A DNA stretch of 64,000 nt from a virus, in IMG/VR virus record IMGVR_UViG_3300045988_163643, positions 32,001 to 96,000 of that record. One strand, written 5' to 3'. A program made the translations under genes and the position numbers. Shown here piece by piece: positions 2,567 to 64,000 of the stretch (position 1 is its first letter; each line of letters begins with the position of its first letter). Under the pieces are notes generated by a model, which was not told the DNA's origin, searched no databases, and worked only from the letters and a program-made list of their open reading frames with translations.

Positions 2567-2683
2567 CTAATTAATAAACAATAAAAGAAATACTGCTAAA
2601 AACATTGTAATAGCTAAACCTATTTTACCACACATTAAATCTATCACTCCTAGAATAACACAAGCCATAATTATTAAAAACAT
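2567..2683 (-). CDS. small hydrophobic peptide (38 aa)
   Basis: Hand-translated: AGGAGGG directly after the stop of 2700..3734, ATG at 2683, giving MFLIIMACVILGVIDLMCGKIGLAITMFLAVFLLLFIN. Shares the FLLLFI end with its neighbour. Confidence 0.4.
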   Translation of the reverse strand: MFLIIMACVILGVIDLMCGKIGLAITMFLAVFLLLFIN

Positions 2684-2699
2684 ATCCAATTTCCCTCCT

Positions 2700-3734: not shown

Positions 3735-3764
3735 ACTAATCTCTCCTTTATCTTATTTACTTAT

Positions 3765-3793
3765 ATTATACTACACTTTTTATAAAAAGTAAA
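3765..3793 (-). promoter_or_regulatory. class I cassette promoter
   Basis: TTTACT-17-TATAAT plus the conserved leader. Confidence 0.55.
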
Positions 3794-3818
3794 GAGATAA
3801 AATAAAATTTATCTCTTT
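3791..3818 (-). terminator. intrinsic terminator after the helicase
   Basis: 11-bp stem AAAGAGATAAA/TTTATCTCTTT. Confidence 0.6.
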
Positions 3819-5391: not shown

Positions 5392-5393
5392 AA

Positions 5394-16589: not shown

Positions 16590-16680
16590 CCCCTTTACAC
16601 TTATAACATATTTTTTTAATAAATAATTTAAGCATATTATAAATAGAATAGCAATTTTACTATTATTACTTCTATTACAA

Positions 16681-25565: not shown

Positions 25566-26426
25566 TTATATTTTTCTTTTTAGATTATATACAGAATATA
25601 CATTTGCTTTTATATTCATATTATTTAATAAACCTTTGATTTGTTTTTCACTTAATTCAATTCCAGTTTCAAGTTCAAAGTTTTTGATTTTATCTGCAAC
25701 ATAAGAATTATATAAAGAAGTAGTTGATATTCCTTCAACATCTATTCTTCTTAATATTCTATTTATTTTATCTCTACCTGCATTTTCTTTAATCTTATCT
25801 AATCCGTCATTATTAAATTTATTTTTTCTATTTTTCCATAGATATGAATTATTTTCATTATAGTAGTAGTAATCATAATTACTTTTTTCTTTAACATACA
25901 TTTTATATCCACGTTCTTTGGATGCTTTATCAATTATTCCCATAGTATAATCATCTAAAGTTATAGTTTTATCTTCTAATTTTATTTCATTTCTATCAAC
26001 ATTAATATCATTCATTTTTATATTAATGATTTCTTCACCTTTTAATCCATTTCTTAATAATAGTACTATAGCTTTATCTAAATAATTTTCAAATATATTA
26101 ACACCCATTATAACTTCTTCATAAGGGATATATCTTAATGTTCCATTTTCTATATCTAATAAATCATTTTTATTTATATCTCTATATACTTTATTTCCTA
26201 TAAAGATTAAATATTTCTTTAATAAACTCCATTTAACTGCTAATGTATTATATTTTCTACAGTCTAAAGAAGATAACATATTTAAACAATCTTCTTTACT
26301 CCAATCTTCTATTGTTCTGTTTATTGTTGTTTCATGTGCTTCTATATTTTTGAACAATGTAATATATGATTTTCTAGTACTTTCACTCATTTCTTTTTCT
26401 TTTAAAAATCTACTTATATTATTCAT
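25566..26426 (-). CDS. tyrosine-recombinase-fold protein lacking the H-x-x-R and His catalytic residues
   Basis: 286-aa ORF with SAM-like N-domain (KWSLLKKYLIFIGNK) and LLLRNGL (Arg I kept). ISTTSLYNSYV stands where HxLRH is expected. Confidence 0.6.
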   Translation of the reverse strand: MNNISRFLKEKEMSESTRKSYITLFKNIEAHETTINRTIEDWSKEDCLNMLSSLDCRKYNTLAVKWSLLKKYLIFIGNKVYRDINKNDLLDIENGTLRYIPYEEVIMGVNIFENYLDKAIVLLLRNGLKGEEIINIKMNDINVDRNEIKLEDKTITLDDYTMGIIDKASKERGYKMYVKEKSNYDYYYYNENNSYLWKNRKNKFNNDGLDKIKENAGRDKINRILRRIDVEGISTTSLYNSYVADKIKNFELETGIELSEKQIKGLLNNMNIKANVYSVYNLKRKI

Positions 26427-26443
26427 AACATTCTCTCCTTTTA

Positions 26444-27325
26444 TTAATTATTTGCCTTTTGTTTGGTCATATTTCTAATATCATAAACATTTTTAGTGAT
26501 ACCAAATTCATATTTTAAATAATCCCTTAATTCACTTTGAGTTAAATTTCTTTCTATTTTATGTTGATGTTCAATTACTTTATCAACTACATGACTAAGG
26601 GTAAGGTTACTTAATATGATAGTGTTATCATTTAATTCTTCTTTTATTTTTTGAAGTCTACCTCTCATGCCACTTATTTTTAAGTGTGATAATCCATCAT
26701 TAGTCCATTTAGTTCTTCTAGTCTTAAATAAATATTCACTATCCATATTATATACTATTATTTTTTCATAACTTCCTAATGCTACATATTCTTTTTCTTC
26801 TGTTGCTCTTTTAACTAGATACATTGTATAGTCGTCTATTTTCTTATTATATATCATATTTCTTTTAAAATCAATATCTTTTACTTTTAATTTTACTAAA
26901 TCTTCTGCTTCAAATTTCATTCCTATACCATTTCTAGCTAAAAACAATAAAGCTTTATCAGAATAGTTTTCTAATTTGCTAACTAATTTTATTAAATCTT
27001 CTTTATAAATATATCTTTTTTCTTCATATTCTTTATTGATTTCTATGATTTTATTCAAATCTTTTTTTGTAATTAATTTTATATTTTTATTTCCTATGAA
27101 GTCATAATATCTTTTTAATAAACTCCATTTGCTATTGATAGAATTATATGTACCCTTATCTATGCAATGATTAAGTAATAATGTAAATTCTTCTTTAGTT
27201 TCAATATCTTCTATGTTTTTATTCAATACTTTTTCTAATTCTGTCATTTTTGTAAATAAACCTTCATACATGTTATATGTATTTTCATTATTAATTGTTG
27301 CTAAAAATATTTCTCTACACTTCAT
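26444..27325 (-). CDS. paralogous degenerate tyrosine-recombinase-fold protein
   Basis: Track ORF is 26444..27334. ATG 27325 is 9 nt after AAGGAG. KWSLLKRYYDFIGNK, FLARNGI, and LTLSHVV in place of HxxR. Confidence 0.6.
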   Translation of the reverse strand: MKCREIFLATINNENTYNMYEGLFTKMTELEKVLNKNIEDIETKEEFTLLLNHCIDKGTYNSINSKWSLLKRYYDFIGNKNIKLITKKDLNKIIEINKEYEEKRYIYKEDLIKLVSKLENYSDKALLFLARNGIGMKFEAEDLVKLKVKDIDFKRNMIYNKKIDDYTMYLVKRATEEKEYVALGSYEKIIVYNMDSEYLFKTRRTKWTNDGLSHLKISGMRGRLQKIKEELNDNTIILSNLTLSHVVDKVIEHQHKIERNLTQSELRDYLKYEFGITKNVYDIRNMTKQKANN

Positions 27326-27426
27326 ATATACCACTCCTTTTATATTTTATCTATATTATAGACAAATTTTAGAAGGGATATACAAAATGATAAAGATTTT
27401 TTTATTTTTTTATCTTATTTACTTAT

Positions 27427-27455
27427 ATTATACTATTGTTCTTATTAAAAGTCAA
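27427..27455 (-). promoter_or_regulatory. class I cassette promoter
   Basis: TTGACT-17-TATAAT. Drives the two degenerate recombinase genes. Confidence 0.65.
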
Positions 27456-27463
27456 TAAAAAAA

Positions 27464-27481
27464 GAGAGAAAATTTTCTCTC
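27464..27481 (-). terminator. cassette terminator
   Basis: GAGAGAAAATTTTCTCTC palindrome plus a U-run. Confidence 0.7.
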
Positions 27482-27491
27482 ATTTTAAAAT

Positions 27492-28424
27492 TTATAAATC
27501 AAATATATTTATTTTTTCCATAGATTCTTGTATATCCTTACGTTGTTGGATGTAGTATTTCATTGATGTATTGATTGTCGAGTGTCCAAGCGTATCCTTT
27601 ATTTCTTGTAAAGTGATATTTGGATTTTCTCCCATTTTTGTACCTATTGTATGTCTTACATTATGAAAATGAACTCTAGGAACTCCAGCTATGTCACAAC
27701 AGTCATACCAAATTTTTCTTATGCCTTGCGTTTTTAATTGATTAAAATTTCTATCTGTAAGCAAATATTCTCTATTTGGGTTATATGATACTAATTCTTT
27801 TATAAGTTCAACAACTTCATTATTACAATTTGTGCTACGACCAATACGACCCTTGTTACCTTTAGAACGCACCATTATTTTATTATTATCTTCTAATTTT
27901 AAATCTTCTATTTTTATTCTACTCATTTCTCCAATTCTTAATGCAGTTGAAAATACTAATTTTACAATTACTTTATTTCTTAAATTTATATAATTACCAT
28001 GACAATTAAATTCTTCTTTATCTGTTGCTTGTAATATTGCTCTTATAATATCGTCATTAAATGCTTTATCTCCTTTATAATCATTTTCCCCTTTTTCATT
28101 AATCTTAGGAAATCTATATAGGCAATTGTCTTTTAAAAATTCTTCATTGACTAGAAAATTATAAAAACTACTCATTTGTTTTATTTTTTTATTTATTGTT
28201 GCTATTGAAATATCATCTTCATCTTTTTGTTTATTAATCCAATTAAACCAAAACTCCTTATCCATATTAATGAATTCACTAACTTCATTTATTTTTTCAT
28301 CTTTAACAAATTTTTGTAGTGTACTAACATAACTTTTAATTGTAGCTTCGCTTTTGTTTAATAAATTTAAATATTTTACATATTTAAATACACAATTATC
28401 CATACTCATATTTTTATCTAACAC
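27492..28424 (-). CDS. tyrosine recombinase / integrase (XerC/D-like), catalytic residues intact
   Basis: FSTALRIGE (Arg I), HFHNVRHTIGT (HxxR), LGHSTINTSMKYY (His, Tyr). Start is GTG 28424 (9 nt after AAGGAG) or 28433/28409. Confidence 0.85.
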   Translation of the reverse strand: MLDKNMSMDNCVFKYVKYLNLLNKSEATIKSYVSTLQKFVKDEKINEVSEFINMDKEFWFNWINKQKDEDDISIATINKKIKQMSSFYNFLVNEEFLKDNCLYRFPKINEKGENDYKGDKAFNDDIIRAILQATDKEEFNCHGNYINLRNKVIVKLVFSTALRIGEMSRIKIEDLKLEDNNKIMVRSKGNKGRIGRSTNCNNEVVELIKELVSYNPNREYLLTDRNFNQLKTQGIRKIWYDCCDIAGVPRVHFHNVRHTIGTKMGENPNITLQEIKDTLGHSTINTSMKYYIQQRKDIQESMEKINIFDL

Positions 28425-28458
28425 ATCAACCACTCCTTTTATTTATTTATCTATAATA

Positions 28459-29739: not shown

Positions 29740-30312
29740 TTAATATAATTCCAAATATTTATGTTTTATTTTTTTTATTGCTCTATTGAAAATTTGATTT
29801 ACATTTTGTTTTGATAAATGTAAAATATTACCCATTTCCTCAAAAGTATAACCAGCTAAAAATAATCTTATAATTTGCCCACTTCTTTCACTTATTAAAT
29901 CTGCACATTTTATTATTTCTTTAATTAAATCTTTTTTATACATAGTTTCTACAACTTCATTTTCTAAATCATAATCATATTCTATTAATTCTAATAATGT
30001 TTTACTTTCTTCTTCATGTACAATTTTTCTATCTAAACTATCAACTATTGAATCTCCTTTTCTTTTCATTGTATTTTTATTTTGATAAAATTTTTTACAA
30101 CTCCATTTAATAGAATTTTCTATAAAAACAGATTTTCCCATTACTTCATCTAATTTATCAAGGTCTTTTAATAAGTTCAATGTTATTTCTGATTTTAAGT
30201 CCTCAAGACTAAAATAATTATTTTTTGCATTACCATAATAAAACATTCTCGCATATTTATCTATCAGCATTTCATAATCATTAATTATATTAACCTTTAA
30301 TTCATTATTCAT
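29740..30312 (-). CDS. sigma-70-family (ECF-like) factor
   Basis: Region 4 HTH SGQIIRLFLAGYTFEEMGNILHLSKQNVNQIFNRAIKKIK. ATG 30312 is 9 nt after GGAGA. Confidence 0.65.
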   Translation of the reverse strand: MNNELKVNIINDYEMLIDKYARMFYYGNAKNNYFSLEDLKSEITLNLLKDLDKLDEVMGKSVFIENSIKWSCKKFYQNKNTMKRKGDSIVDSLDRKIVHEEESKTLLELIEYDYDLENEVVETMYKKDLIKEIIKCADLISERSGQIIRLFLAGYTFEEMGNILHLSKQNVNQIFNRAIKKIKHKYLELY

Positions 30313-30337
30313 ATACACACATCTCCATTTATAATTT

Positions 30338-31313: not shown

Positions 31314-32099
31314 CTAATCATTAAATTTGAAAGATACTTTCATATCAGCTTTAGTGCAAGTGGCTTGAGCATTATATTTTTTATTTAATAAATTATATTT
31401 TATTGTATATTTGTTACATCCTAAAGTTTTACAAGCTATTAAATAATTGTCAAATACTTTATGATAACCATCGTTATTAAATACAATTACTTCTTTATCT
31501 TCTATTTTATCATTTTCATCTTCATAATCATATTCATTAATACTTAATTCTTCTTTATTTTTTATTAATTCTTTTCTTAATTTTATTATTAGTTGTTGAA
31601 CTCTTTGTTTACTTATTCCCATTTTACTACCTATTTCCTCGTAGTTATAACCATTCATAAGCATTATAGCTATATCATATAATCTTTTATCTTTTAAAGT
31701 TTTAATATAATTTAATATTTCATTTCTATAAATACCAGTAAAATCATCTAATCTTCCAACAGTTCTATCTCTAACTTTTTCAGTATCTTCGTCCATACCT
31801 TCGTTTTCATGTATTTTTTTCTCTCCACCTTTTTGGACATATTTATATAAATCATTATTAATAAAACTTAGCATTTTATTTCTAATTGATTTAACTGCTA
31901 AAGTACTAAGTTTTCCTTTACTTTCATCATAAGATTTAATTACACTATATAAAGTTATCATTCCGACTTGTCTTAAGTCAGCATATACATCATATTCAGT
32001 TATTGTAGTATAGAAAAATCTTTGTATTACCCAATCTACTAAATTTTCATTTTCCATTAACATTTCTTCTATTCTTATTTCATTTTCAAATTTTTCCAT
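31314..32099 (-). CDS. sigma-70-family factor with C-terminal NUMOD1-like HTH extension
   Basis: DLRQVGMITLYSVIKSYD (region 2). DIAIMLMNGYNYEEIGSKMGISKQRVQQLIIKLRKEL (region 4). C-terminal VIVFNNDGYHKVFDNYLIACKTLGCNKYTIKYNL. Confidence 0.7.
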   Translation of the reverse strand: MEKFENEIRIEEMLMENENLVDWVIQRFFYTTITEYDVYADLRQVGMITLYSVIKSYDESKGKLSTLAVKSIRNKMLSFINNDLYKYVQKGGEKKIHENEGMDEDTEKVRDRTVGRLDDFTGIYRNEILNYIKTLKDKRLYDIAIMLMNGYNYEEIGSKMGISKQRVQQLIIKLRKELIKNKEELSINEYDYEDENDKIEDKEVIVFNNDGYHKVFDNYLIACKTLGCNKYTIKYNLLNKKYNAQATCTKADMKVSFKFND

Positions 32100-32188: not shown

Positions 32189-32938
32189 TTATTTATCTTC
32201 CCACATGAAGTTTATTTTCTTATTCAAAGTTTTACTTTTAGCACTTTTCCTTAATCCTTGACATATTTTCCTAATAGAGTTCTTATCAATACCTAATTCA
32301 TCACTAGCCATTTGGAGATTATCATATTTTTTATAAAATTTTTCATCTATAAAAGCTATAACACCACCTTTACTTTTTCTAATTTCATATCTTATATTGA
32401 AATTTTCTTTTAAGTTTTCTTTTATAAATAATATTTTTTTATTTATAATACGATAATTCTTATTTAATATTCCACTTATCTCCTTTCCATTGTATCCTCT
32501 TAACATATAACAAAATACTATATAATAATCTTCACCTAATTTCTTTACGTATTTTAAATATGCTTCAATATATAAAGTTGTTTCATCGTCATAACTACCT
32601 AAAATATCTTCAAGAGTTAATTTTTTATCTTCTTCATTATGTATAACTTCATTAAGTGATAAAATATTTTTACTATTTATTGTATATTTACTTCTAATGT
32701 AGGTTATAATAGAATTATAGATACATTTACTACAATAGCAGATAAAGGATTTTTCATTATCTATATTATCAATAGGTTTATAAGAAGTATATGCTTTTAC
32801 AATAGCCATTCTACCTTCTTGTAATAAATCATCATAATCATTACTATAAATAAAATTCGAAAAATGCCTTTTAATATTGGATTTAATTAGATATTCATAT
32901 TTAATTATAACTTCATTTAAATCAACTGTACTATCCAT
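32189..32938 (-). CDS. sigma-70-family factor with C-terminal NUMOD1-like HTH extension
   Basis: Start ATG 32938 (AGGGGGA SD). DLLQEGRMAIVKAYTSY (region 2), MLRGYNGKEISGILNKNYRIINKKI (region 4), VIAFIDEKFYKKYDNLQMASDELGIDKNSIRKICQG. Confidence 0.65.
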   Translation of the reverse strand: MDSTVDLNEVIIKYEYLIKSNIKRHFSNFIYSNDYDDLLQEGRMAIVKAYTSYKPIDNIDNEKSFICYCSKCIYNSIITYIRSKYTINSKNILSLNEVIHNEEDKKLTLEDILGSYDDETTLYIEAYLKYVKKLGEDYYIVFCYMLRGYNGKEISGILNKNYRIINKKILFIKENLKENFNIRYEIRKSKGGVIAFIDEKFYKKYDNLQMASDELGIDKNSIRKICQGLRKSAKSKTLNKKINFMWEDK

Positions 32939-32974
32939 TTTCAATCCCCCTATCATTCTTATTTACTTACTTAT

Positions 32975-51602: not shown

Positions 51603-51654
51603 ACAAAAGTTTTTTTAACTTTTGTTACTGAAAAAGAGAATTAATTCTCTTTTT
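51603..51654 (-). other. paired stem-loop boundary cassette
   Basis: hp1 ACAAAAGTT/AACTTTTGT at 51603-51625. hp2 at 51631-51654. Confidence 0.6.
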
Positions 51655-51961
51655 CTTTTCTAAAACGGAATTCAATTATATTTTTATCTCTATGATTTTT
51701 TATTAGATTTATTTCAGCTTCAGCTTGTTGGTCGTTGTCATACATGAATAACTTGTCAATGTCTGTTCTGTGGTTTAAACAATAAACTAAAAAACCGACT
51801 CTTGTTGCACCTTCATATTGAAAATAAATTAATTCATTTTCAAGATTAATTCTAACTTTAGTTATCCATATTTTTTCATTTATTTTCTTTTCATATTTTA
51901 TCATGTCGATTATTTTATCCATATTCTTTAATAATTCACTTCTTATTTCTTTTTTATTCAT
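51641..51961 (-). CDS. hypothetical protein
   Basis: Track ORF 51641..51991 starts in the leader. True ATG is 51961 after TAGGAGGGTTTTGT. Confidence 0.55.
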   Translation of the reverse strand: MNKKEIRSELLKNMDKIIDMIKYEKKINEKIWITKVRINLENELIYFQYEGATRVGFLVYCLNHRTDIDKLFMYDNDQQAEAEINLIKNHRDKNIIEFRFRKEKEN

Positions 51962-51988
51962 ACAAAACCCTCCTAAAAATTTCATTTT

Positions 51989-52046
51989 CAAGATTAATTT
52001 TAATTTTAATCTTGTAACTGAAAAGGGGAAACTTAATTCCCCTTTT
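51989..52046 (-). other. paired stem-loop boundary cassette
   Basis: hp1 CAAGATTAA/TTAATCTTG at 51989-52014. hp2 AAAAGGGGAA/TTCCCCTTTT at 52021-52046. Confidence 0.6.
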
Positions 52047-54582: not shown

Positions 54583-55047
54583 TTAAAATCCCCCTTTTTT
54601 TAACAAACAAGGGATTTTATAATTCCTATACCTTTTCCTATAACTGAAAAGGAAAAAATCCTTTTCCGTTTTTTTTAGGAGGAGGGAACATATTTAATTA
54701 TATAATAGGATTTTTATCATTGACCTCCTATGCCCTTGTAAATAGTCAATGACTGTTAAGTACTAAAACCTAACTTTTGATTATTACCTTATAACCCTCT
54801 GAGCACTTTTCAAAAGTTCCGACTTAAAAAGTATGAGTTCGTAAGTACTTATTAGAATTAATCTAACAGTTTACCTATATAACCTTTGATAATAGGGTTT
54901 TTATCAAAAGCACCTTTTAAGTTTTCCCTTTTGCCAGTTACCTAAAAGTTGTAAGATAATGCTTAATTCTATCAGGTGATATATTAAGCTTCTATTATAT
55001 ACCCTAAGCGTATAGCTTAAGGATTTTTTATTTCTTTTATTACCTTA

Positions 55048-55076
55048 ATTGTATCAGGTCTTTTATTTAATGTCAA
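55048..55076 (-). promoter_or_regulatory. early leftward promoter P1 of a tandem triplet
   Basis: TTGACA-17-TACAAT with an A/T-rich upstream tract. Confidence 0.65.
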
Positions 55077-55150
55077 GTACTTTTTAAAAATCTTTTAAAA
55101 CTTTTTAAGTAGCTCCTAAGTTGTTTTCCTAAGTTGTTATTTATACTTAT

Positions 55151-55179
55151 ATATTATCATGTCTTTTATCTAATGTCAA
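55151..55179 (-). promoter_or_regulatory. early leftward promoter P2
   Basis: TTGACA-17-TAATAT. Part of a ~100-bp tandem unit. Confidence 0.6.
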
Positions 55180-55249
55180 CTATTTTTTTTAAAAAACTTT
55201 TAAAACTTTTTAAGTGCTTTCCTAAGTTGTTATTTATTTTATTAACTTA

Positions 55250-55278
55250 ATTGTATTTAACCTCTTATCTAATGTCAA
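55250..55278 (-). promoter_or_regulatory. early leftward promoter P3
   Basis: TTGACA-17-TACAAT. Part of a ~100-bp tandem unit. Confidence 0.65.
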
Positions 55279-55467
55279 CTATTTTTTTTATGTTTTTTTA
55301 TGTTTTTTGTATACATTAAAATGAATATTGTATTTTTTATATTGTATACATTATTTTGTATATTGTATTTTGAATAATGAATTTTGTATATTGTTTAATG
55401 TATACAGTATACCTATACTCTTTTATATTGATTTTCAAAATTCATATTTCTATTTTATTTTTTTCTA

Positions 55468-55569
55468 ATATTGCCGTGTGACGTGATATAAGGCAATTTA
55501 AGGATTTTCAGAGCAGTTACTGTATAATTTATTCAATTGATTAATATATCCTCTTATATTGCCTTATAT
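55468..55569. promoter_or_regulatory. ATTGCC boxes upstream of rightward gene 1
   Basis: ATATTGCC (55468-55475), inverted GGCAAT (55492-55497), CTCTTATATTGCCTTATAT (55551-55569). Confidence 0.4.
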
Positions 55570-55596
55570 GGATACATGAAAACTTTTAAAAAATTA

Positions 55597-55624
55597 TTGA
55601 CATTAAATAAAGTTATGCTATCAT
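55597..55624 (+). promoter_or_regulatory. rightward promoter of 55668..55865
   Basis: TTGACA-16-TATCAT. Confidence 0.5.
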
Positions 55625-55667
55625 TATATTAAATATTAATAAAATTAAATAAAGGTGGTTGATTGAA

Positions 55668-55865
55668 TTGAAGAAATATAGTATAGAAATAAAAGGCAAT
55701 ATATGGACAAGAGAATTAATTATAAATATATGCAGGGAAAAATCAATTAAATATAATGTAACAGAGTTATTAAGTGGATTAAAATATTGTATGCAATTAA
55801 ATGATTTAGGCTTTTGGGACTATCATTATTTCAATAGACTTAAAAAAATAGAAGAGAAAAAATAG
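55668..55865 (+). CDS. small rightward gene (65 aa), hypothetical
   Basis: Track ORF is 55659..55865. TTG 55668 is 9 nt after AAAGGTGG. Own promoter 55597-55624 and terminator 55863-55890. Confidence 0.45.
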   Translation: MKKYSIEIKGNIWTRELIINICREKSIKYNVTELLSGLKYCMQLNDLGFWDYHYFNRLKKIEEKK

Positions 55866-55890
55866 TAGAGACTGCTCTGCTATTTTTTTT
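55863..55890 (+). terminator. terminator of 55668..55865
   Basis: TAGTAGAG-actg-CTCTGCTA (one G-U pair) plus T8. Confidence 0.6.
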
Positions 55891-55898
55891 ATTGTATA

Positions 55899-55916
55899 TA
55901 TGAATAACTGTTCATA
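55899..55916. promoter_or_regulatory. 18-bp palindromic operator, LexA(Cheo)-box-like core
   Basis: TATGAATAACTGTTCATA with core GAAT-AACT-GTTC. Confidence 0.5.
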
Positions 55917-56141
55917 TGTTTATATGTTTAATTGTATGCAATATACTATATAATGCATCATGTATACAATATAATATATCATGTATTGTTTATTATGTAT
56001 AGTGTATAATGTATGCAATATTATGCATATTGTATCTTGTATGCAATATATAATATACTGTATGTAATATTATGTATATTGTATTATATTAGTTAACTTG
56101 TAAACTATTATCATATTGATAATAAATAATACTTGACAAAT

Positions 56142-56153
56142 AAACAGTTGTTC
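56142..56153. promoter_or_regulatory. Cheo-box-like site (11/12)
   Basis: Reverse complement reads GAAC-AACT-GTTT. Sits just downstream of TTGACA 56133-56138. Confidence 0.35.
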
Positions 56154-56529
56154 TGTAATCGAACGTAGCATATTTTATAATGTTTGTCAACAGTTATTTT
56201 TAGCTAAAAAGTTTAGTATAAGTAAACAATGCAAGTGTGAAACCATTGAAAATACTATATTATCATATTGATAAATTTACAAATACTAAGAAAAAATCAT
56301 GACCCATTTAAATCGATTCTAAGAGGGCGAACAAAATCCCTCTTTATAGTTAATCCTTTATATGAAGTCACTCTATACAGAGCTTTAAAATCGACGGTAA
56401 AAGGTCGGTATATATTTTTAAAAAGGTGACTATACATTTTATTGTATGTAATATATTGTATACAATTTATTATCATAATGATAATATATGAATAGATATT
56501 CAGGTATTCATATATAGAATTGTATAACA

Positions 56530-56547
56530 TATGAATAACTGTTCATA
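56530..56547. promoter_or_regulatory. 18-bp palindromic operator
   Basis: TATGAATAACTGTTCATA. About 21 nt are identical to site 55899 with its flanks. Confidence 0.5.
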
Positions 56548-56571
56548 TGTTTAATTATTCAATCGTATTAG

Positions 56572-56599
56572 TTGATTTGTGAACTACTATCAATATGAT
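56572..56599 (+). promoter_or_regulatory. candidate rightward promoter followed by palindromic operator 56604-56621
   Basis: TTGATT-16-TATGAT. Confidence 0.4.
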
Positions 56600-56603
56600 A
56601 ACA

Positions 56604-56621
56604 TATGAGTGATTGTTCATA
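56604..56621. promoter_or_regulatory. 18-bp palindromic operator (variant)
   Basis: TATGAGTGATTGTTCATA. Confidence 0.45.
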
Positions 56622-56662
56622 TAATATGTATAATGTATACAATATAATGTACTATGTATACG

Positions 56663-56680
56663 TATGAGTAACTGTTCATA
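56663..56680. promoter_or_regulatory. 18-bp palindromic operator (variant)
   Basis: TATGAGTAACTGTTCATA. Confidence 0.45.
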
Positions 56681-56717
56681 TATTCATATATATACTGTAT
56701 AGTGTATAATGTTTATT

Positions 56718-56778
56718 GTATACAATATAATATACTATGTATGATATATTATGTATGTTGTACTATGTATACAATATA
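56718..56778. repeat. 61-bp direct repeat, copy 1
   Basis: GTATACAATATAAT..GTATACAATATA. 59/61 identical to 56837-56897. Confidence 0.85.
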
Positions 56779-56836
56779 ATGTATAGTGTACTATGTACTA
56801 TGTATGGTGCATGATATGTAGTGTACTATGTATGGT

Positions 56837-56897
56837 GTATACAATATAATGTACTATGTATGATATACTATGTATGTTGTACTATGTATACAATATA
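56837..56897. repeat. 61-bp direct repeat, copy 2
   Basis: See 56718-56778. Confidence 0.85.
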
Positions 56898-56898
56898 G

Positions 56899-56926
56899 TT
56901 GATAAGTGAACTATTATCAATATGAT
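56899..56926 (+). promoter_or_regulatory. candidate rightward promoter followed by palindromic operator 56931-56948
   Basis: TTGATA-16-TATGAT. Copy of the 56572 unit. Confidence 0.4.
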
Positions 56927-56930
56927 AACA

Positions 56931-56948
56931 TATGAGTTACTGTTCATA
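56931..56948. promoter_or_regulatory. 18-bp palindromic operator (variant)
   Basis: TATGAGTTACTGTTCATA. Confidence 0.45.
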
Positions 56949-56966
56949 CGTTCATATGATAGTATG

Positions 56967-56984
56967 ATAGAACAACTGTTCCTA
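56967..56984. promoter_or_regulatory. perfect GAAC-N4-GTTC (Cheo/LexA-box core)
   Basis: ATAGAACAACTGTTCCTA with the core at 56970-56981. Confidence 0.5.
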
Positions 56985-57094
56985 TGATGTTCTATGTTAG
57001 TAGAACATATGGTACAATAATCGAACTGCATAGAATTGATTGTAAGGCGTTTGCGTGATGTTCTTCTTATGTTACATCGTTGATAGTGTTCCTT

Positions 57095-57117
57095 CTCTTA
57101 TATTGCCTTGTATTGCC
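57095..57117. promoter_or_regulatory. ATTGCC boxes upstream of rightward gene 2
   Basis: CTCTTATATTGCCTTGTATTGCC, two direct TATTGCC. Confidence 0.4.
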
Positions 57118-57173
57118 TCATAAGGTTACATTGAAAAAATTAGTGTATTAGAGAAAAAATTTTCATAGGATTG

Positions 57174-57202
57174 TTGACACGGAAAAGGGTAACTGCTATA
57201 AT
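57174..57202 (+). promoter_or_regulatory. rightward promoter of 57240..57401
   Basis: Perfect TTGACA-17-TATAAT. Confidence 0.7.
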
Positions 57203-57239
57203 TATGTTAATAAAAGATAAATAAAAGGGAGTTGATAGT

Positions 57240-57401
57240 ATGAAGAAGTTATTATTTGTTTTGGTGATTTTAGGAGTTATGGTGATTTTTAAGGACTGCT
57301 TATTAATAGGTTTAATGGATATTGTTGATTTTGTGGGTAACTTGTTTAACTTGAATACCGTTGTATTAATTGACTTCTTAAATAATTTATATTATTTATA
57401 A
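57240..57401 (+). CDS. small rightward hydrophobic protein (53 aa)
   Basis: Hand-translated MKKLLFVLVILGVMVIFKDCLLIGLMDIVDFVGNLFNLNTVVLIDFLNNLYYL. AAAAGGGAG SD, perfect TTGACA-17-TATAAT promoter, 13-bp-stem terminator. Confidence 0.55.
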   Translation: MKKLLFVLVILGVMVIFKDCLLIGLMDIVDFVGNLFNLNTVVLIDFLNNLYYL

Positions 57402-57405
57402 GAGG

Positions 57406-57443
57406 AATAAGTGGGATATATTTTATCCCACTTATTTTTTTAT
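57406..57443 (+). terminator. terminator of 57240..57401
   Basis: 13-bp stem AATAAGTGGGATA/TATCCCACTTATT plus T7. Confidence 0.8.
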
Positions 57444-57688
57444 GAAATATGCTCAGGTGATTTTATGTATATTGTATGGTGTGTGGTGAATAGTGTATAC
57501 AGTATTTTTTATTATGTATAATGTATTGTTTATTGTATTGTATATTGTATTATGTATTGTATTATGTTTATTGTATAATGTATTGTATAATGTATAATGT
57601 ATATTATGTATATATGGTGATATAAAAGAATTTTATATATTTTTATAAAATATTATATTTTAAAAAGCCAGTGCTCTGTATAAAATTT

Positions 57689-57750
57689 TAGGGAATTTTG
57701 TGGGGAATTTTAGGGAATTTTAGGGAATTTTAAGGATTTTATAGGGGGAC
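57689..57750. repeat. 10-bp iteron array TAGGGAATTT
   Basis: GGGAA starts at 57691, 57703, 57713 and 57723, with degenerate units at 57733 and 57744 (spacing 12, 10, 10, 10, 11). Confidence 0.8.
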
Positions 57751-57780
57751 TCTGAAAATTTTGTGGGATATATAATAGGG

Positions 57781-57803
57781 GGTGGGTCGGGAAAAATCCC
57801 ACC
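57781..57803. repeat. GC-rich hairpin/IR
   Basis: GGTGGG-tcgggaaaaat-CCCACC. Confidence 0.7.
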
Positions 57804-57832
57804 AAGGATTTTATATGTACAGGATTTTAAAA

Positions 57833-57853
57833 AACAGTTCTTAGAGAACTATT
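57833..57853. repeat. palindrome sharing the AACAGTTCT half-site with IR 40476-40561
   Basis: AACAGTTCT-TAG-AGAACTATT. Confidence 0.7.
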
Positions 57854-58409
57854 TACAAATTCGACACGAAGGGGGTAGTTTATGTATAATTCGACAAAAT
57901 TCTACACAAATATGAGTCTAGTCCCTTTATCTACACACTATTAAATTTCATCAAAATATTATTAAATTTCACTAATATTTCATCAATATTAAATTTACAA
58001 GATTAATCATATATAAAAATAATACTCTAAAACGCACTATAAAAATACATCACATTGTATACACAACATTGTATACACGATTGTACATTACCACACCACC
58101 ATCCATACACCACCTATTCCCCTATAACAAGCAATGAAATAAAAAGGAGGGGGGTACTTTATGATAATATCAATTATCAAATCAATAATATCACTTCCCC
58201 TTATATACACTATCCCAATAAAATCCAATAAAAATAACTTAAAAATAACTATAAAAAACGTACTATTTTAAATCAATTTCAGTATATTTTTAATCAAAAA
58301 CATACCATTTTCGACCAATTTTGTTACATTTTTGTACCATTTTAACCTAAAATAATCATAAAATATACGATATACCATATAAAAAGTAATGTATCAAAAT
58401 CATATAAAG

Positions 58410-58454
58410 TTATCCACAATTTCAACAAAGTTATCCACAGAATAATGTGGATTA
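58410..58454. promoter_or_regulatory. DnaA-box cluster
   Basis: Perfect TTATCCACA at 58410-58418 and at 58431-58439. Inverted TGTGGATTA (8/9) at 58446-58454. Confidence 0.6.
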
Positions 58455-58681
58455 AAAATAACGATAAATCACGAAAATATTAATATGTCTATTTTTATAA
58501 TCCCTCAAATCTCATTTTTTAAAGGTAAATAAAAAAAATGTACGGTTAACCGAATAAGAAAAAATCCTACAAAAAATACATGGTTAACCGTACTCAAGAA
58601 ATTAAAACAAATAAAATACATGATTAATGATATATAAAAACGATATAACATTATTGATGCTTAAAAAGAGTAAAAAAATAA

Positions 58682-58699
58682 CCTACTTATAATAGTAGG
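58682..58699 (-). terminator. terminator of the late (tail-fibre) operon
   Basis: CCTACT-tataat-AGTAGG followed by AUUUUUUU on the minus strand, about 50 nt after the stop at 58750. Confidence 0.55.
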
Positions 58700-58749
58700 C
58701 TATCTTAATTTATCTTTTTTCTTACGCAATTGATTCATATTGTGTAAAT

Positions 58750-61700
58750 TTATTCACTTGTTGTAAAATCACCTGTTCCTAAATTATTATAATAAATCTT
58801 ATTTACAGTATCATACATACAAATAACATTAGCTTTAGTCTTTACAGGTATTAAGTCTAATATCTGTTGCCCATTTCTAGTTATTGTACAAGCATATAAT
58901 TTCATTGCACATTTTGTACTATTTTCACAACTTCCATTACTTGAATGTTGTCCGAATAAATATAAAGATAGTGTATTGTTGTCATTAAGTAATTGACAGT
59001 TATAAGTTTGACCATTGAATGATATTACTCTATTATTTAATGAATACTCATCAATATCATTAGAAATAGTTTCATCATAAGTGTTTGTGCTTACCATATC
59101 AATTCTATATTTATTATTAATAACTACTAATTGGCATCCCTGGTTCTCAAGACCATTACCATAAGCATCACCAAAAGGTATTGACGTTTTTATAAAGTTT
59201 AAAGGTTTAAATTTCACATACAAGCTATCTGTGTCAAAATTCAAAGTAACTCCAGTATCTATATATTGATTTCCATCACTTTGAATATAATTTAATTGAG
59301 TAAAATCATCTGATGTAATAGTACTTTTACAAGACACATTTATTACTATATCTCCGGTAACATTATTTATATTAATATTTCCTTGTGAATAAACTGTACT
59401 TGTAATATCAGTTCCACCCATAGTTACTGTTACTGTGTCATAAGTGCATCCACTGACAGGTGTGATTGTTGCACTATAAGACCCCCCTATTTTACAATAA
59501 GTACTATTGTTACTTGTTGTACATTTATTTAAAGTATTAACTACTTTTGCAAAAGTACCGTTTTTACTTGTTTCATATAAATACATTTTATTTAATTCTT
59601 CACTAGTTAAAACCCTATTATATATTTCATGTGAATAATAAATAAAGTTTACCCCTTCTCCTATTTTACCAATTATAAAATCAAGAGTGTTATCTGTAGT
59701 TAATGAATATCTATCATTTGTTCCTTCGTATTTTAATTCGCCATTCACATACACTTTACCACTATTCCCTTGTCTAGTCATTGCAATACTCATAAATCTA
59801 TCATATTTCATATCGCTTAAAGGATTATTACCCTCGTTTTCTCCATTTATGAACACAGGAGAAGTGACGCCGGTTTGCATAGCTTTCAATGACCATCCTG
59901 ATTCCGAAGCAGATTGATTAGCTCTTTTACCACATATAATGTGAGTAGCATTACTAAAACCGTGTACATTTATAATTACTGTAAAATCATTAGTTCCAAA
60001 ATTAAAATTATCACCAAAATTAATAGTTGCACTTGAATTTGTTAAATCTAAACCTCCCTTAGTCAATGTAGTTCCTATATAAGAACCTGTTCCAACAATT
60101 GAAGAATTTACTTTATCAACAATTTTATTTGTACTGAAATCATAATCTTCAACATCACAATGTCCTATTAGCCCTTGCGATACAAAACTATTAGATATTC
60201 CACTAACAGTAATATTACAAGTTGCACTTTGACTTCCACAAGTTGCAGTAATAGTACATTGTCCATTTGATGTAGGTGTCACAACTCCATTTTCAACAGT
60301 ACATATACCAGTAGGATTTGCTGACCAAATAACTTCGTCTGTAGTATCACTAGGAGTTAATGTAGCAGTTATCGTTTGTGGTGTTGTATCAGTAAATGTT
60401 AAAGTATTATTATTTAATACAATATTAGTACAAGGCTTATCTTCTTTAACTCCACTTACAGTAACATTACAAGTAGCAGTTTTAGTTCCACAAGTAGCAG
60501 TAATAGTACAATTTCCATCTTTAATCGGTGTTACAACACCTTTATTGACAGTTACTATACCAGTAGGAGTTACACTCCATGTAACTGTATCTGTTGTATT
60601 AGTAGGAGCTAATGTAGCGGTTAATGTTTGACTGTCTGTTGTTGTAAATGATAATGTTGTATTATTTAAAGTTATATTAGTACAAGCTACAGTTTCTTTA
60701 TATTTATTGTCTAAATAAGATATTCTTTGTTTAATCCACGTATACATACTATCAATATCATCTGTTTTATTAATTCTATTTGACCATTTACTTCTTTCTT
60801 TGGTTATATTTTCAGTCCCCCAAATTGATTGAAATGCTCTAAATTGATTTATAATCCTACTTACATTTATTGTCCCATTATTTCTTAATTCCCAATATCT
60901 TTGGCTTATTTCATTAAAATAATTACTATATAATTTATTCCATACTGGATTAGTCTTAGTATATTGACAATTAAGTAAATCTGTTGTAGGTTTGCTTGGA
61001 TGATAAGATATACCAGCATTTTGGAATAACCCAAATATTATGTCTAAATCATACCAGCACATATACCATTTTGACCCATCCCATGTAGCAATAGTCCAAT
61101 TGTTAATCATACTATCAGTTGCACAAGCTAAATCTGCAAATACCCAATAATTAATCGCATTTTGTAAAATTAGATGTTCCTCAAAATGTGCTTTAAAATC
61201 ACTATCACTTGAATTATTTATAAAATTTAGCAAATCAGTTAATTTACCTTGAATTTCTGATGTTTCAGTTCCATCACTTCTATATTCAAAATTAGATAAT
61301 ACTAGACTTCCTAAACCACTTCTATATACTATATTTGTTAATGGATTTTTTTTACTGTTCATTCCAAATAAATCATCATCCTGTTTTATATTAAGAGTAT
61401 AACACCCATTAAATTCTCCGTTTAAATATAAAATAACAGGCTTAGATTTTACTGTAATCGGAGCGTCTACTGGAAATGTAGTATTATCAAAATCCCACAC
61501 CATTTGTGCTCCTACAGAATTTCTTACCATTGAATAATCAGCATAATTACATTTTAAATGGTATGTGCTTGTAGCATAATCAAATATTTTTATTTTTTTC
61601 TTATTTCCTTCAACGTCTTTAAGTTTTAAACTTAAATTTTTATTAGGATATTGTAAACTTCCGCTACCTTGCCATGTGGTTGTTGATTTTCCTTGAAATA

Positions 61701-61989
61701 CTGTAGAACCATATTCATCAACATACAAAATATCTAATTGTACTGGATTAGTTTTGCTTATACCTGTAGTATCACCATCTAAATAAATTATTCCACATGG
61801 ATATGATTGAATTTTAGGTACTATACCATTCTCAACTTTCTTCGCAATATCTTTATATTGCGTATTAAGTTTGTCAACATCACTTTTAATATTATTTATG
61901 TCAGTTTTAATATTATCTAATCCTTCAATATTATTATTTGAATTCTCATTATTATTAATAAAACCAAATTTATTATCTTTATCAAACAT
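58750..61989 (-). CDS. tail fibre / receptor-binding protein: CotH-like domain, two Big_2 domains, LamG-like lectin domain
   Basis: 1079-aa ORF with CotH motif WTIATWDGSKWYMCWYDLDIIFG. Two Big_2 repeats (..TLTATLAPTNTTDTVTWSV..TITATCGTKTATCNVTVSG). A LamG-type region (FTVIINVHGF..GWSLKA..VYVNGEL). Confidence 0.8.
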   Translation of the reverse strand: MFDKDNKFGFINNNENSNNNIEGLDNIKTDINNIKSDVDKLNTQYKDIAKKVENGIVPKIQSYPCGIIYLDGDTTGISKTNPVQLDILYVDEYGSTVFQGKSTTTWQGSGSLQYPNKNLSLKLKDVEGNKKKIKIFDYATSTYHLKCNYADYSMVRNSVGAQMVWDFDNTTFPVDAPITVKSKPVILYLNGEFNGCYTLNIKQDDDLFGMNSKKNPLTNIVYRSGLGSLVLSNFEYRSDGTETSEIQGKLTDLLNFINNSSDSDFKAHFEEHLILQNAINYWVFADLACATDSMINNWTIATWDGSKWYMCWYDLDIIFGLFQNAGISYHPSKPTTDLLNCQYTKTNPVWNKLYSNYFNEISQRYWELRNNGTINVSRIINQFRAFQSIWGTENITKERSKWSNRINKTDDIDSMYTWIKQRISYLDNKYKETVACTNITLNNTTLSFTTTDSQTLTATLAPTNTTDTVTWSVTPTGIVTVNKGVVTPIKDGNCTITATCGTKTATCNVTVSGVKEDKPCTNIVLNNNTLTFTDTTPQTITATLTPSDTTDEVIWSANPTGICTVENGVVTPTSNGQCTITATCGSQSATCNITVSGISNSFVSQGLIGHCDVEDYDFSTNKIVDKVNSSIVGTGSYIGTTLTKGGLDLTNSSATINFGDNFNFGTNDFTVIINVHGFSNATHIICGKRANQSASESGWSLKAMQTGVTSPVFINGENEGNNPLSDMKYDRFMSIAMTRQGNSGKVYVNGELKYEGTNDRYSLTTDNTLDFIIGKIGEGVNFIYYSHEIYNRVLTSEELNKMYLYETSKNGTFAKVVNTLNKCTTSNNSTYCKIGGSYSATITPVSGCTYDTVTVTMGGTDITSTVYSQGNININNVTGDIVINVSCKSTITSDDFTQLNYIQSDGNQYIDTGVTLNFDTDSLYVKFKPLNFIKTSIPFGDAYGNGLENQGCQLVVINNKYRIDMVSTNTYDETISNDIDEYSLNNRVISFNGQTYNCQLLNDNNTLSLYLFGQHSSNGSCENSTKCAMKLYACTITRNGQQILDLIPVKTKANVICMYDTVNKIYYNNLGTGDFTTSE

Positions 61990-62010
61990 TCTATTTCTCC
62001 TTTCTGTTTA

Positions 62011-63654
62011 TTATTCTTTAGGAACAAAAGTTTTACTAACTCCATTGATAGTAACTACTAGTTCTCCACTTTCATTAAAGGTAAACTGAGGTAAATTAGA
62101 AACTTTATCATCTACGTATTTTTTATGGGCTGGATTATAATCATTGGTTACATCGTATTCATATGTATTATCTGGACTAATTGAACTTAATTTTGTTTGC
62201 ATTAATTTCCATTTACCATTTTCTTTAGTTATACTTAAATATTTGCAATAATTGTTTATACAATTCATATTAATTGCTATAAATGTATCACTTTTTAATT
62301 GAATACATATTGAAGTACTAAGCATACTACTCCAACCAATTGTATTTGACCCATCGTCAACAGTGAACCAAGTTCCATCATCATTAGGTGCTTTTAAACT
62401 AACTTTAAAGAATCCACTAACTATTGATGAATTTACTCTATAATTAGTTCCCTTTTCTAAAGTTGTTATATCCACATATCCTTTAGGTAGATTTGGGTCA
62501 TCATATAATATAGTAGGTGTTTTAAAATAATAATCTCTACTATCATCTACATATTTTTTAGTAGTTAAATCTTTATCTTCAGTAGGAGTACCTTCTTGAG
62601 ATAATTTACCTGCATACCAAGCATTACCTTGCCAGTCTAAAGTATGAGCATTAGCTCTTTTCTTATCACTACTACCATTACCTACTATATGTGCATATTT
62701 ACCTTCAGTATCTTCTATATTATATTTACCTTGTACATGCTGGTTGATAGAAGAAGCTTTAGTATATTTACCTTCTGCATGAGAATTTTCACCTGAAGCT
62801 GTTGTACCATTACCTTCTGCATGTGAATACAAACCTGAAGATATTGCATTAAAACCTTCTGCATGTGAACAATAACTTGAAGCTACTGTATACCAACCTT
62901 CAGCGTGTGAAGAAGTACCTGAAGCTTTTGTTTTATGACCTTCTGCATGTGAATTATCAGCTGATGCAGTTGTATATTTACCTTCTGCATGTGAACCATA
63001 ATCACCTGAAGCTGTTGTATTCAGACCTTCAGCATGTGAACAGTTACCTGAAGCTATTGTAAAACATCCCATAGCAGTAGAATATTCACCTATTTTACTA
63101 TTAGGGTCACGTCGTATACTTAAACTATTATAAATATCAACATCTTTTCCAAGTAATAATGTATTAAATTTATTAATAGATATTTCAAATAATTTAATTC
63201 CTCCAGTAAATACAGGTGGTTTATTATCATTAATTCTATTTAGTACCATTAATGCTACATTCTCATTATACTCTTCTGTTTTATCATAAAAAGTCTGTAC
63301 ATCCCCTCCACCTATATTATTAACAGTATCATTTATGCCAAAAAATTCCATAATTACTCTAGTTTTATTTTGCTTAGTTAATTCTTTAGTATATACTGAA
63401 TCTAATCTGTAACGTTTATTATTAATTTCAATAAAAAACAAAGTATCGTCTTTAATTGTAAAATTAGGAATTTCAATATACATAGATGTATCATCACTAG
63501 CTTGGCACTCAGCCCATGCTTTATTTAATTGGTCTACTGTTATATTTAATAGTGCAGTTTCTGATTTAATATATGGTAAATCGGTATTCTTTATATTATT
63601 TGATTCATTATTGTTGTTAATAATAAATCCAAATTTATTATCTTTATCAAACAT
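62011..63654 (-). CDS. tail fibre with YadA-head-like (Hep_Hag) SHAEG repeats
   Basis: 547-aa ORF with 7-8 repeats of xxSHAEGxxTxASx at 14-15-aa period (~62740-63050). Its N-terminus MFDKDNKFGFI is shared with 58750..61989. Confidence 0.75.
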   Translation of the reverse strand: MFDKDNKFGFIINNNNESNNIKNTDLPYIKSETALLNITVDQLNKAWAECQASDDTSMYIEIPNFTIKDDTLFFIEINNKRYRLDSVYTKELTKQNKTRVIMEFFGINDTVNNIGGGDVQTFYDKTEEYNENVALMVLNRINDNKPPVFTGGIKLFEISINKFNTLLLGKDVDIYNSLSIRRDPNSKIGEYSTAMGCFTIASGNCSHAEGLNTTASGDYGSHAEGKYTTASADNSHAEGHKTKASGTSSHAEGWYTVASSYCSHAEGFNAISSGLYSHAEGNGTTASGENSHAEGKYTKASSINQHVQGKYNIEDTEGKYAHIVGNGSSDKKRANAHTLDWQGNAWYAGKLSQEGTPTEDKDLTTKKYVDDSRDYYFKTPTILYDDPNLPKGYVDITTLEKGTNYRVNSSIVSGFFKVSLKAPNDDGTWFTVDDGSNTIGWSSMLSTSICIQLKSDTFIAINMNCINNYCKYLSITKENGKWKLMQTKLSSISPDNTYEYDVTNDYNPAHKKYVDDKVSNLPQFTFNESGELVVTINGVSKTFVPKE

Positions 63655-63731
63655 TTTATTTTCTCCTTTCTATATAAAAAAAATAAAGGGAAATATATAG
63701 AATTATATCTATTATTTCCCTTTATATAAAA

Positions 63732-63995
63732 TTAATTTAACCCTATATATCTAACTTTTGAACCACTTTCAACAACAACTATTGATTCTATTACTACATT
63801 TCCTAAACTTAAAGTTTCATTAGCACGTATTAATATTTTATCTCCATCGTTAAATACAACGTTTATTTCTCCTTCGCCCATATTTTGGACTTGAACATTA
63901 GTTATTGATTCTATAGTTCCTTCGTTACCATCAGATAATACTTCTTGATATTCTCTTTCAGTTGTAACTACTTTACCTCTAACTTTAACTGCCAT
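63732..63995 (-). CDS. hypothetical late (virion-module) protein
   Basis: 87-aa ORF. The upstream region lies beyond the window. Confidence 0.5.
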   Translation of the reverse strand: MAVKVRGKVVTTEREYQEVLSDGNEGTIESITNVQVQNMGEGEINVVFNDGDKILIRANETLSLGNVVIESIVVVESGSKVRYIGLN

Positions 63996-64000
63996 TATAA

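Follow-up and report, generated by a model that had tools for sequence, protein, structure and literature searches.

What could be the role of three DnaA boxes packed into 45 bp of non-coding DNA in the genome of a large phage? The cluster lies in a 64,000-nucleotide stretch (hereafter the window) of a metagenomic contig of ~197.7 kb with a GC content of 24%, and an earlier note on this DNA regarded it as part of a plasmid-prophage origin that depends on the host DnaA. To our knowledge, nothing is established about how SPbeta-like and phiCD211-like clostridial phages of 130-200 kb start their replication or persist, and several relatives are plasmid-prophages with toxin or fitness genes. A conserved DnaA-box module therefore offers an easily mutated handle on host-DnaA dependence, on the location of the origin and on the episomal state.

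The phage and its affinities

All substantial open reading frames of the window lie on the minus strand (1-54582 and 58750-64000), and their PHROG and Pfam matches indicate a large tailed phage. The gene set includes an ATP-dependent ligase, a Sak4-type annealing protein, a DnaB-like helicase, Ant anti-repressors, a CotH/Ig tail-fibre-like protein and TnpB. Ligase and helicase are closest to those of phiCD211/LIBA2945-type C. difficile phages (36-44% identity, with 44% for the ligase) and of SPbeta-like phages; in PLSDB, relatives of the helicase at 25-36% identity are carried by ~130-kb C. difficile plasmid-prophages, a 139-kb C. tetani plasmid and a 203-kb C. botulinum group III plasmid. Matches to MrpR_N_CB at 25566-26426 and 26444-27334 adjoin a tyrosine recombinase gene, and the set typical of SPbeta-like and phiCD211-like phages is thus present: a recombinase-fold repressor of the MrpR type, a DnaB-like helicase, an ATP-dependent ligase and an SSAP (Sak4). 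MrpR is the recombinase-fold master repressor of SPbeta (PMC10516654). An assignment of the three recombinase-like genes to a recombinase-in-trio element was considered and rejected in view of the Pfam MrpR matches and the SPbeta literature; by analogy, these genes more likely represent a lysogeny module resembling yopP-yopR than an integration cassette. The protein similarities place the phage, a ~200-kb inhabitant of the human gut, among the relatives of SPbeta and phiCD211, and the MrpR-like repressors, the Ant proteins and the small genes equipped with promoters argue for a temperate phage. The family of ~200-kb gut phages carrying the box cluster is newly delineated here.

Four sigma-factor-like genes (14940-16691, 29740-30318, 31314-32099 and 32189-32956) suggest a multi-stage transcription programme encoded by the phage. 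TnpB of the IS605 family, with an OrfB/Cas12f-like TNB domain, is found at 12911-14128 on the minus strand of the window and twice in the related contig L002 (3725-4855 and 6606-7823), its copies occupying different places in different family members. Auxiliary genes unusual for a phage (7644-8216, 9349-10404, 16681-18288, 18620-19282 and 19470-20381 in the window; 10664-12508 in contig L240) have products that include an NT5C nucleotidase, a protein with an alpha-amylase catalytic domain, an M18 aminopeptidase, a pentapeptide-repeat/DUF5758 protein and a PAPS-reductase-like protein, and a gene for an FtsH-like AAA+/M41 protease, just left of the window, also belongs among them. No tRNAs were found, Rfam gave nothing credible at either gathering or permissive thresholds, and PADLOC gave no match on the spacer and the early ORFs.

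A non-random cluster of DnaA boxes

Positions 58406-58454 read AAAGTTATCCACA-ATTTCAAC-AAAGTTATCCACA-GAATAA-TGTGGATTA, so that the true repeat unit around boxes 1 and 2 is 13 bp long and extends beyond the DnaA consensus TTATCCACA that it contains (Table 1). The two perfect boxes share their orientation and are set 21 bp apart, just as the earlier note had described, which from start to start is two helical turns and leaves a 12-nt gap between them; the inverted third box with its eight of nine matches is likewise present, its distance from box 2 being 6 nt (GAATAA in the window) and not the 7 given before. Boxes 2 and 3 together can form a weak hairpin, or palindrome, of 7 bp (-5.1 kcal/mol, z = -1.8). 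Inside the conserved block around the trio there are no further boxes with up to two mismatches except for a two-mismatch box at 58201.

The window holds only these two perfect copies of TTATCCACA, and shuffled sequences lead one to expect 1.10 per 64 kb, close to the earlier estimate of about one or fewer. Boxes with one mismatch show no overall enrichment (28 observed vs 26.6 expected), which means that the signal resides in clustering and not in density. Two perfect boxes within 50 bp of each other arose in 2 of 4000 composition-matched simulations, and with the addition of a third box having at most one mismatch the chance becomes ~2e-5 by an analytic estimate, which bears out the contention that such a triple cluster is improbable by chance. 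Perfect boxes are also scarce in the family loci, with just one other in ~337 kb. The cluster of DnaA boxes is real and non-random.

The near-box TTATCCATA forms two same-strand pairs elsewhere in the window, at 28258 and 28396, upstream of and inside the tyrosine recombinase region, and at 51862 and 51915, inside the ORF 51641-51991. Given that one-mismatch boxes are not enriched overall, these pairs are probably chance occurrences or paralog repeats.

Conservation across the phage family

Among 17 distinct family sequences, taken from contigs of 147-206 kb, none of the 27 box positions varies; 4 of the 18 inter-box positions do, as do 20% of the positions in 58250-58650. Variation extends to the 6-nt gap between boxes 2 and 3, which reads GAATAA, GAATGA or AGATAA depending on the relative. 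Five IMG/VR contigs (147-204 kb) and numerous contigs from human-gut metagenomes have the trio unchanged and with the same flanks, and it is carried by all relatives that were retrieved independently of the boxes, through the N-terminus of the tail fibre, the inverted repeat, an 82%-identical early protein or the DUF7222 profile. Metagenomes with the phage include ERZ28622108, SRR1930134 and ERZ27242481. The block that contains the trio is the conservation maximum of the spacer, with a three-way identity of 96% vs ~78% in the adjoining coding DNA. It persists while both of its flanks are exchanged or mosaic among the relatives, which marks it as a discrete, selected module, and the pattern of substitutions indicates purifying selection on the boxes across the phage family. 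All of these relatives belong to one fairly tight family, which limits the depth of the conservation footprint: searches for more distant relatives with the helicase, the first early protein or the DUF7222 profile returned only the same family, and neither megablast nor blastn found DNA-level relatives of the spacer in phage and plasmid collections.

Homology among the relatives breaks sharply at ~58650, where the tail-fibre cassettes differ. In the window, the mosaic tail-fibre/receptor-binding cassette beside the block encodes a 1079-aa CotH/Ig/LamG protein; in relatives (L235-L239, about 1000-5900) it encodes YadA-head-like fibres together with a Glyco_transf_92 protein.

Members of the family assemble as autonomous contigs of 198-206 kb in which the trio module takes arbitrary positions, as expected of random breakpoints, and none of the 29 contig blocks of at least 50 kb with the family is in a contig longer than 1 Mb. 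This fits a circular or circularly permuted autonomous genome. Searches with the helicase and the first early protein found no isolate genomes carrying the phage. The phage-plasmid, or episomal, lifestyle proposed earlier is accordingly plausible on circumstantial grounds, the same contigs being equally expected from virion DNA or from replicating lytic DNA.

Architecture of the spacer

The trio occupies the best conserved part of a long control region at the junction of the late and early modules (Table 1).

Table 1. Position and character of the DnaA boxes and of the features surrounding them, in window coordinates
Feature	Position	Strand	Description
Three tandem recombinase-fold genes	25566-28433	-	Two with only the MrpR N-terminal core-binding domain (286 and 296 aa), one full tyrosine recombinase (313 aa)
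Spacer, 4.1 kb	54583-58749		Non-coding control region containing the trio; repeat-rich, with small plus-strand units; runs from late-operon terminator to early promoters
Three tandem near-consensus promoters	55048-55278	-	Inside ~100-bp direct repeats; drive the early operon starting at 54582
Least stable 40-mer	57620-57659		99.9th percentile of the window; 750 bp from the boxes; less AT-rich in relatives
G-rich array ('iterons')	57684-57746	+	AATTTTAGGG x6, 10-bp period; 664-726 bp from box 1; degenerate in relatives
Promoter-like site TCGACA-18-TATAAT (11/12)	57861-57890	+	Kept in most relatives; points towards the box block
Variable, insertion-tolerant stretch	57954-58139		ATTAAATTTCA and CATTGTATACAC repeats
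Shine-Dalgarno GGAGGGGGG and small ORF	58146-58271	+	Strong Shine-Dalgarno at 58146-58154; ORF start at 58161
Conserved non-coding block with trio	about 58150-58650 (58152-58650)		Best conserved part of the spacer
Helically phased T-tracts	58266-58343	+	Start-to-start 21, 21, 11, 10, 11 bp; ACCAtTTT repeats; conserved; upstream of the boxes
DnaA box 1	58410-58418	+	Perfect TTATCCACA; within 13-bp repeat AAAGTTATCCACA at 58406-58418
DnaA box 2	58431-58439	+	Perfect TTATCCACA; within 13-bp repeat AAAGTTATCCACA at 58427-58439
DnaA box 3	58446-58454	-	Inverted; plus strand reads TGTGGATTA, which is TAATCCACA on the minus strand; 8/9
A-tract repeats	58455-58479	+	AAAATAACG x2.7, 10-bp period; directly 3' of box 3; nearly invariant in the family
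Perfect 12-bp inverted repeat	58540-58593		GTACGGTTAACC ... GGTTAACCGTAC, 30 nt between arms; fold z about -5; T-run follows on minus strand
Intrinsic terminator of late (tail-fibre) operon	58675-58706	-	Homology of relatives breaks just inside

Within the block, the phased T-tracts upstream of the boxes are predicted to be intrinsically curved DNA. The perfect inverted repeat on the other side co-occurs with the trio in five of five IMG/VR family contigs and could be either a protein-binding site or a long-loop terminator. The small ORF starting at 58161, which the boxes follow at a distance of about 140-190 bp, encodes 36 aa in the window and a conserved hydrophobic peptide of 21 aa, MIISITKSIILPTLIYTIPIK, in 10 of 12 relatives.

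The 'iterons' some 700 bp away, to which the earlier note had appealed, do exist as an array, and yet they are degenerate and are set apart from the boxes by the small ORF, the insertion-tolerant stretch and a promoter. Four relatives (L139, L184, L206 and L236) carry a plus-oriented HNH endonuclease gene inserted in the equivalent of the latter stretch, and in L139, L184 and L236 this insertion shifts the G-rich array ~850 bp further from the boxes. The inserted gene (L139, 875-1636; L236, 5688-6440; also L184 and L206) encodes a homing endonuclease matching PHROG 953 with E = 2e-44. The least stable 40-mer of the spacer is a candidate unwinding element.

The remainder of the spacer contains further small units. 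It holds a 68-aa plus-strand ORF with its own promoter and terminator, and between the tandem early promoters and the first early gene lies a conserved leader of ~450 nt (54583-55040). At 57174-57449 on the plus strand, a perfect sigma-70-type promoter (12/12 with TG) precedes a very hydrophobic 53-aa peptide and a strong terminator, an arrangement kept in relatives; the peptide may be a type I toxin or a membrane peptide expressed in lysogeny, to be compared with yonT/spbT in the corresponding region of SPbeta. The plus-strand segment 56100-56430 shows a three-way identity of 84-94%, promoter-like sites, two hairpins and a terminator-like end (56390-56418), and overlaps a basic 53-aa ORF with a TTG start (56268-56429) that is conserved in L139; it is a candidate for an sRNA, with no credible Rfam match, or for a small protein. 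A palindrome, AACATATGAA-TAACTG-TTCATATGTT, with arms of ~10 bp and a 6-bp spacer in the geometry of a recombinase core site, recurs at 55900-55920, 56526-56551, 56600-56627, 56660-56685, 56927-56952 and 56970-56986, and the overlapping stretch 56951-57000 is 100% identical in three relatives. By analogy with SPBRE, these palindromes are candidate operators for the MrpR-like repressors.

Resemblance to replication origins

Does the locus have the anatomy of an origin? The basal unwinding system of bacterial origins consists of a box and, starting 0-16 bp 3' of it, three or more NAN trios (read as NTN on the strand of the box), usually with a second tandem box at most 3 bp away, a GC cluster and then an AT-rich element (PMC8287927). 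All three phage boxes fall within the two mismatches that such a system allows (two at 9/9 and one at 8/9). With the orientation of the trios calibrated on a bacterial locus (L190) that reads TTATCCACAtATCCACA-GGCC-CTACTACTACTATTA followed by AT-rich DNA, no DnaA-trios were found 3' of any of the three boxes, every frame yielding at most two consecutive NTN. The 12 bp between boxes 1 and 2 exceed the limit of 3 bp, and box 3 takes up the room 3' of box 2. Nor is there an exceptional AT-rich unwinding element adjoining the boxes: adjacent 40-mers reach only the 94th-96th stability percentile, and the sole extreme AT tract is 750 bp from the boxes and not conserved.

The comparison with plasmid-type origins runs a similar course. 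Of the resemblance to P1 oriR suggested in the earlier note, the DnaA boxes at the locus are borne out by the trio, and the rest of that anatomy is not present. Pfam and PHROG scans that covered the flanking genes, the spacer ORFs and, in relatives, 10 kb to the right found no Rep, ParA, ParM or TubZ genes within ~10 kb on either side, and no Rep or partition genes are among the ~65 ORFs scanned in the window and its flanks, which represent about one third of the 197-kb genome. No iterons adjoin the boxes, the only adjacent repeats being T-tract units of 10-11 bp, and an adjoining AT-rich element is likewise missing. The phage encodes a helicase, a ligase and Sak4; a recognisable origin-binding initiator was not found in the scanned ORFs. 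Third-codon-position skews (GC3/AT3) show no clean switch at the spacer, although they are noisy and only three genes lie on its right.

Genuine low-GC origins of bacteria (L169 and L199) do have the same layout of box, 12 nt, box, 6 nt and inverted box directly ahead of dnaA. It does not amount to a universal trio architecture, as 126 box pairs show no enrichment of inverted boxes at this offset, and capture from a host oriC was rejected as well, there being no similarity beyond the boxes for the origins sampled. Origin function is the most economical reading of the locus, though unproven.

What reads the boxes, and to what end?

A profile built from 49 DnaA proteins found no DnaA homologs, not even a stand-alone domain IV, among all ORFs of 40 aa or more from the window and the family loci, which leaves the host DnaA as the natural reader of the boxes. 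The trio probably binds it, and the phage probably uses it, most likely for replication. The earlier proposal of host-DnaA-dependent replication thus retains the conserved boxes and the lack of a phage DnaA in its favour, and loses the origin features of the oriC and P1 types that would have accompanied it.

We tentatively see the trio as a landing pad on which the host DnaA would initiate or control phage replication, a reading that we favour without quite calling it probable. The trio would constitute a high-affinity DnaA site within a conserved, bent block of ~500 bp at the junction of the late and early modules. Host DnaA would occupy boxes 1 and 2, whose two-turn spacing puts them on the same face of the helix, as well as the inverted box 3, and the phased T- and A-tracts on both sides would wrap the DNA. 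The resulting complex might recruit or position the replication machinery, through either the phage DnaB-like helicase or the host DnaD/DnaB/DnaI pathway, so that theta-type replication of the circular genome would be started or licensed, most plausibly during maintenance in the cell. The scheme builds on the boxes themselves, their conservation, the predicted bent-DNA context and the lack of a phage DnaA, and from these we infer both DnaA binding and replication as its outcome. The affinity of the helicase with those of clostridial plasmid-prophages supports it, as do the assembly of the family as autonomous contigs and the matching box layout of L169 and L199. It is weakened by the presence of only three boxes, with no unwinding module and no rep or par genes nearby, by third-codon-position skews without a clean switch, by the lack of such boxes in the related LIBA2945 and SPbeta, and by the neighbours of other viral box pairs with 21-bp spacing, which are rarely replication genes.

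Another possibility is that bound DnaA serves as a switch or insulator of transcription, acting as a repressor or roadblock where the plus-strand unit converges on the late terminator and thereby linking the replication status of the host to phage gene expression or to antisense transcription that runs on into the late genes. DnaA is a transcription factor in Firmicutes, as in dnaA autoregulation and at sda, and the boxes do lie downstream of a conserved plus-strand promoter (57861) and of a small ORF with a strong Shine-Dalgarno sequence, with the convergent terminator downstream of them; the plus orientation shared by the inserted HNH gene implies transcription through the insertion-tolerant stretch, and the missing unwinding features would suit a role other than that of an origin. 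We nevertheless consider this unlikely: none of the conserved promoters reaches into the boxes, and the minus-strand candidate (~58480-58508) sits where the block is least conserved; moreover, both the window and L002 have a disrupted 21-aa ORF, and an obvious regulated gene downstream is absent. High-affinity consensus sites with no origin features nearby might, on the other hand, simply be a sink comparable to datA or to the Bacillus DnaA-box clusters. Amplification of the phage would then titrate the DnaA of the host and so damp or hijack initiation on the host chromosome, the total number of boxes presumably scaling with phage copy number. Known titration loci have five to nine or more boxes, and the three per phage genome fall short of a dense cluster of at least about 5-9; together with the strict spacing and the conserved bent-DNA context, which suggest a defined nucleoprotein complex, this makes a sink highly improbable.

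The conserved block may alternatively have to do with packaging. Pac sites, such as that of SPP1, typically have bent DNA and inverted repeats, and the block combines predicted curvature with an inverted repeat. SPbeta-like phages have their genome opening point at an intergenic junction, with a conserved block of ~250 bp following it (bioRxiv 10.1101/2021.11.22.469490). If the phage block were a pac or genome-opening region of this kind, DnaA would be architectural or the boxes merely adjacent. The phage has MrpR-like repressor genes of the SPbeta type, the pac intergenic region of SPbeta contains G-rich repeats resembling the 'iterons', and terminases account for ~8 of 91 upstream neighbours of box pairs among the viral matches listed. 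Against this, SPbeta has no perfect DnaA box at the junction or in its first 80 kb, the window has no terminase genes close to the block, and we know of no precedent for DnaA in packaging, so that we regard this role of the block as rather improbable. The match to the DnaA consensus could also be a coincidence. Boxes 2 and 3 would then be the 9-bp arms, 6 bp apart, of a hairpin or of a site for a recombinase-fold phage protein, namely an MrpR-like repressor or the tyrosine recombinase, and box 1 would be an accessory copy. The invariant arms around a variable central 6 nt do match the geometry of tyrosine-recombinase core sites and of spacer palindromes such as that of AACATATGAA and TTCATATGTT, and the phage encodes two MrpR-like proteins and a tyrosine recombinase. 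We give this very little credence, since it is very unlikely that a repeat would fit the 9-bp consensus exactly in two copies by coincidence (at roughly 1e-5 per repeat family), the hairpin has little stability (z = -1.8) and the box sequence is unrelated to the other palindromes of the spacer.

Box pairs in other viral genomes

Pairs of perfect boxes spaced exactly 21 bp apart occur in at least 120 IMG/VR contigs (L017-L136), far above the handful expected by chance. With at least 120 such loci, the pair without the third box proved too unspecific. None of the listed pair-bearing viral loci has dnaA, and 85 of them have only two to four boxes; the neighbours of the listed pairs are GP88-family proteins (13), terminases (~8), serine recombinases and HNH endonucleases, with replication genes being rare. 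Small DnaA-box clusters are therefore common in viral contigs, which makes the motif itself less novel and raises a broader question. The use of DnaA by phages may extend beyond the few plasmid-type examples known. It is a doubtful though attractive thought that the trio is one instance of DnaA landing pads that are portable, independent of Rep and widespread in phages, and that form a class not described before; if so, two to four consensus boxes at two-turn spacing, placed at module junctions, would couple the replication, maintenance or packaging of large temperate phages to the initiation potential of the host.

Comparison with known systems

Auxiliary DnaA boxes, one to five in number, are present at the iteron/Rep origins of P1 (oriR), F (oriS), pSC101, RK2 (oriV) and the Bacillus plasmid pBS72, and P1 has its own DnaB-type helicase, ban. 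The phage resembles the P1 oriR type in having a few consensus DnaA boxes on a mobile replicon that encodes a helicase of the DnaB type, with DnaA recruitment presumed. It differs in that its trio has no adjoining Rep gene, no iterons of 17-22 bp and no AT-rich element, the repeat array being 660 bp away across a transcription unit, and in the position of the trio at a junction of late and early genes. By analogy, the phage element would act like the auxiliary boxes of plasmid and P1 origins, though organised differently.

With bacterial oriC (PMC8287927, PMC6669920, PMC7561715) the trio shares perfect TTATCCACA boxes and their helical phasing, down to an identical layout in L169 and L199. The differences are again considerable: tandem boxes at most 3 bp apart, a GC cluster, a run of at least three trios, an unwinding element of the 27-mer type and dnaA/dnaN are all wanting in the phage, which has three boxes only and no sequence similarity to the sampled oriCs beyond them.

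The yonP-yonR junction of SPbeta, with its pac/opening point and MrpR/SPBRE, differs from the phage locus in gene order and orientation and has no DnaA boxes. The two nevertheless have in common a large intergenic control region, recombinase-fold repressor genes, G-rich repeats, a conserved non-coding block and small lysogeny-type genes, with a toxin-like peptide in each. LIBA2945 (L232-L234) carries, at about 125669-125752, three copies of TTATCAACA and one of TTATGCACA, spaced by 11 and 22 bp, in the intergenic DNA that precedes a gene for a luxR-family regulator. It has no perfect DnaA box and no DNA-level similarity to the phage. In their general character, however, the phiCD211/LIBA2945 phages of ~130 kb and the p1-type plasmid-prophages of C. 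botulinum group III are like the phage described here, being large, low in GC, temperate and siphophage-like, and genomes of both types have been deposited as circular plasmids.
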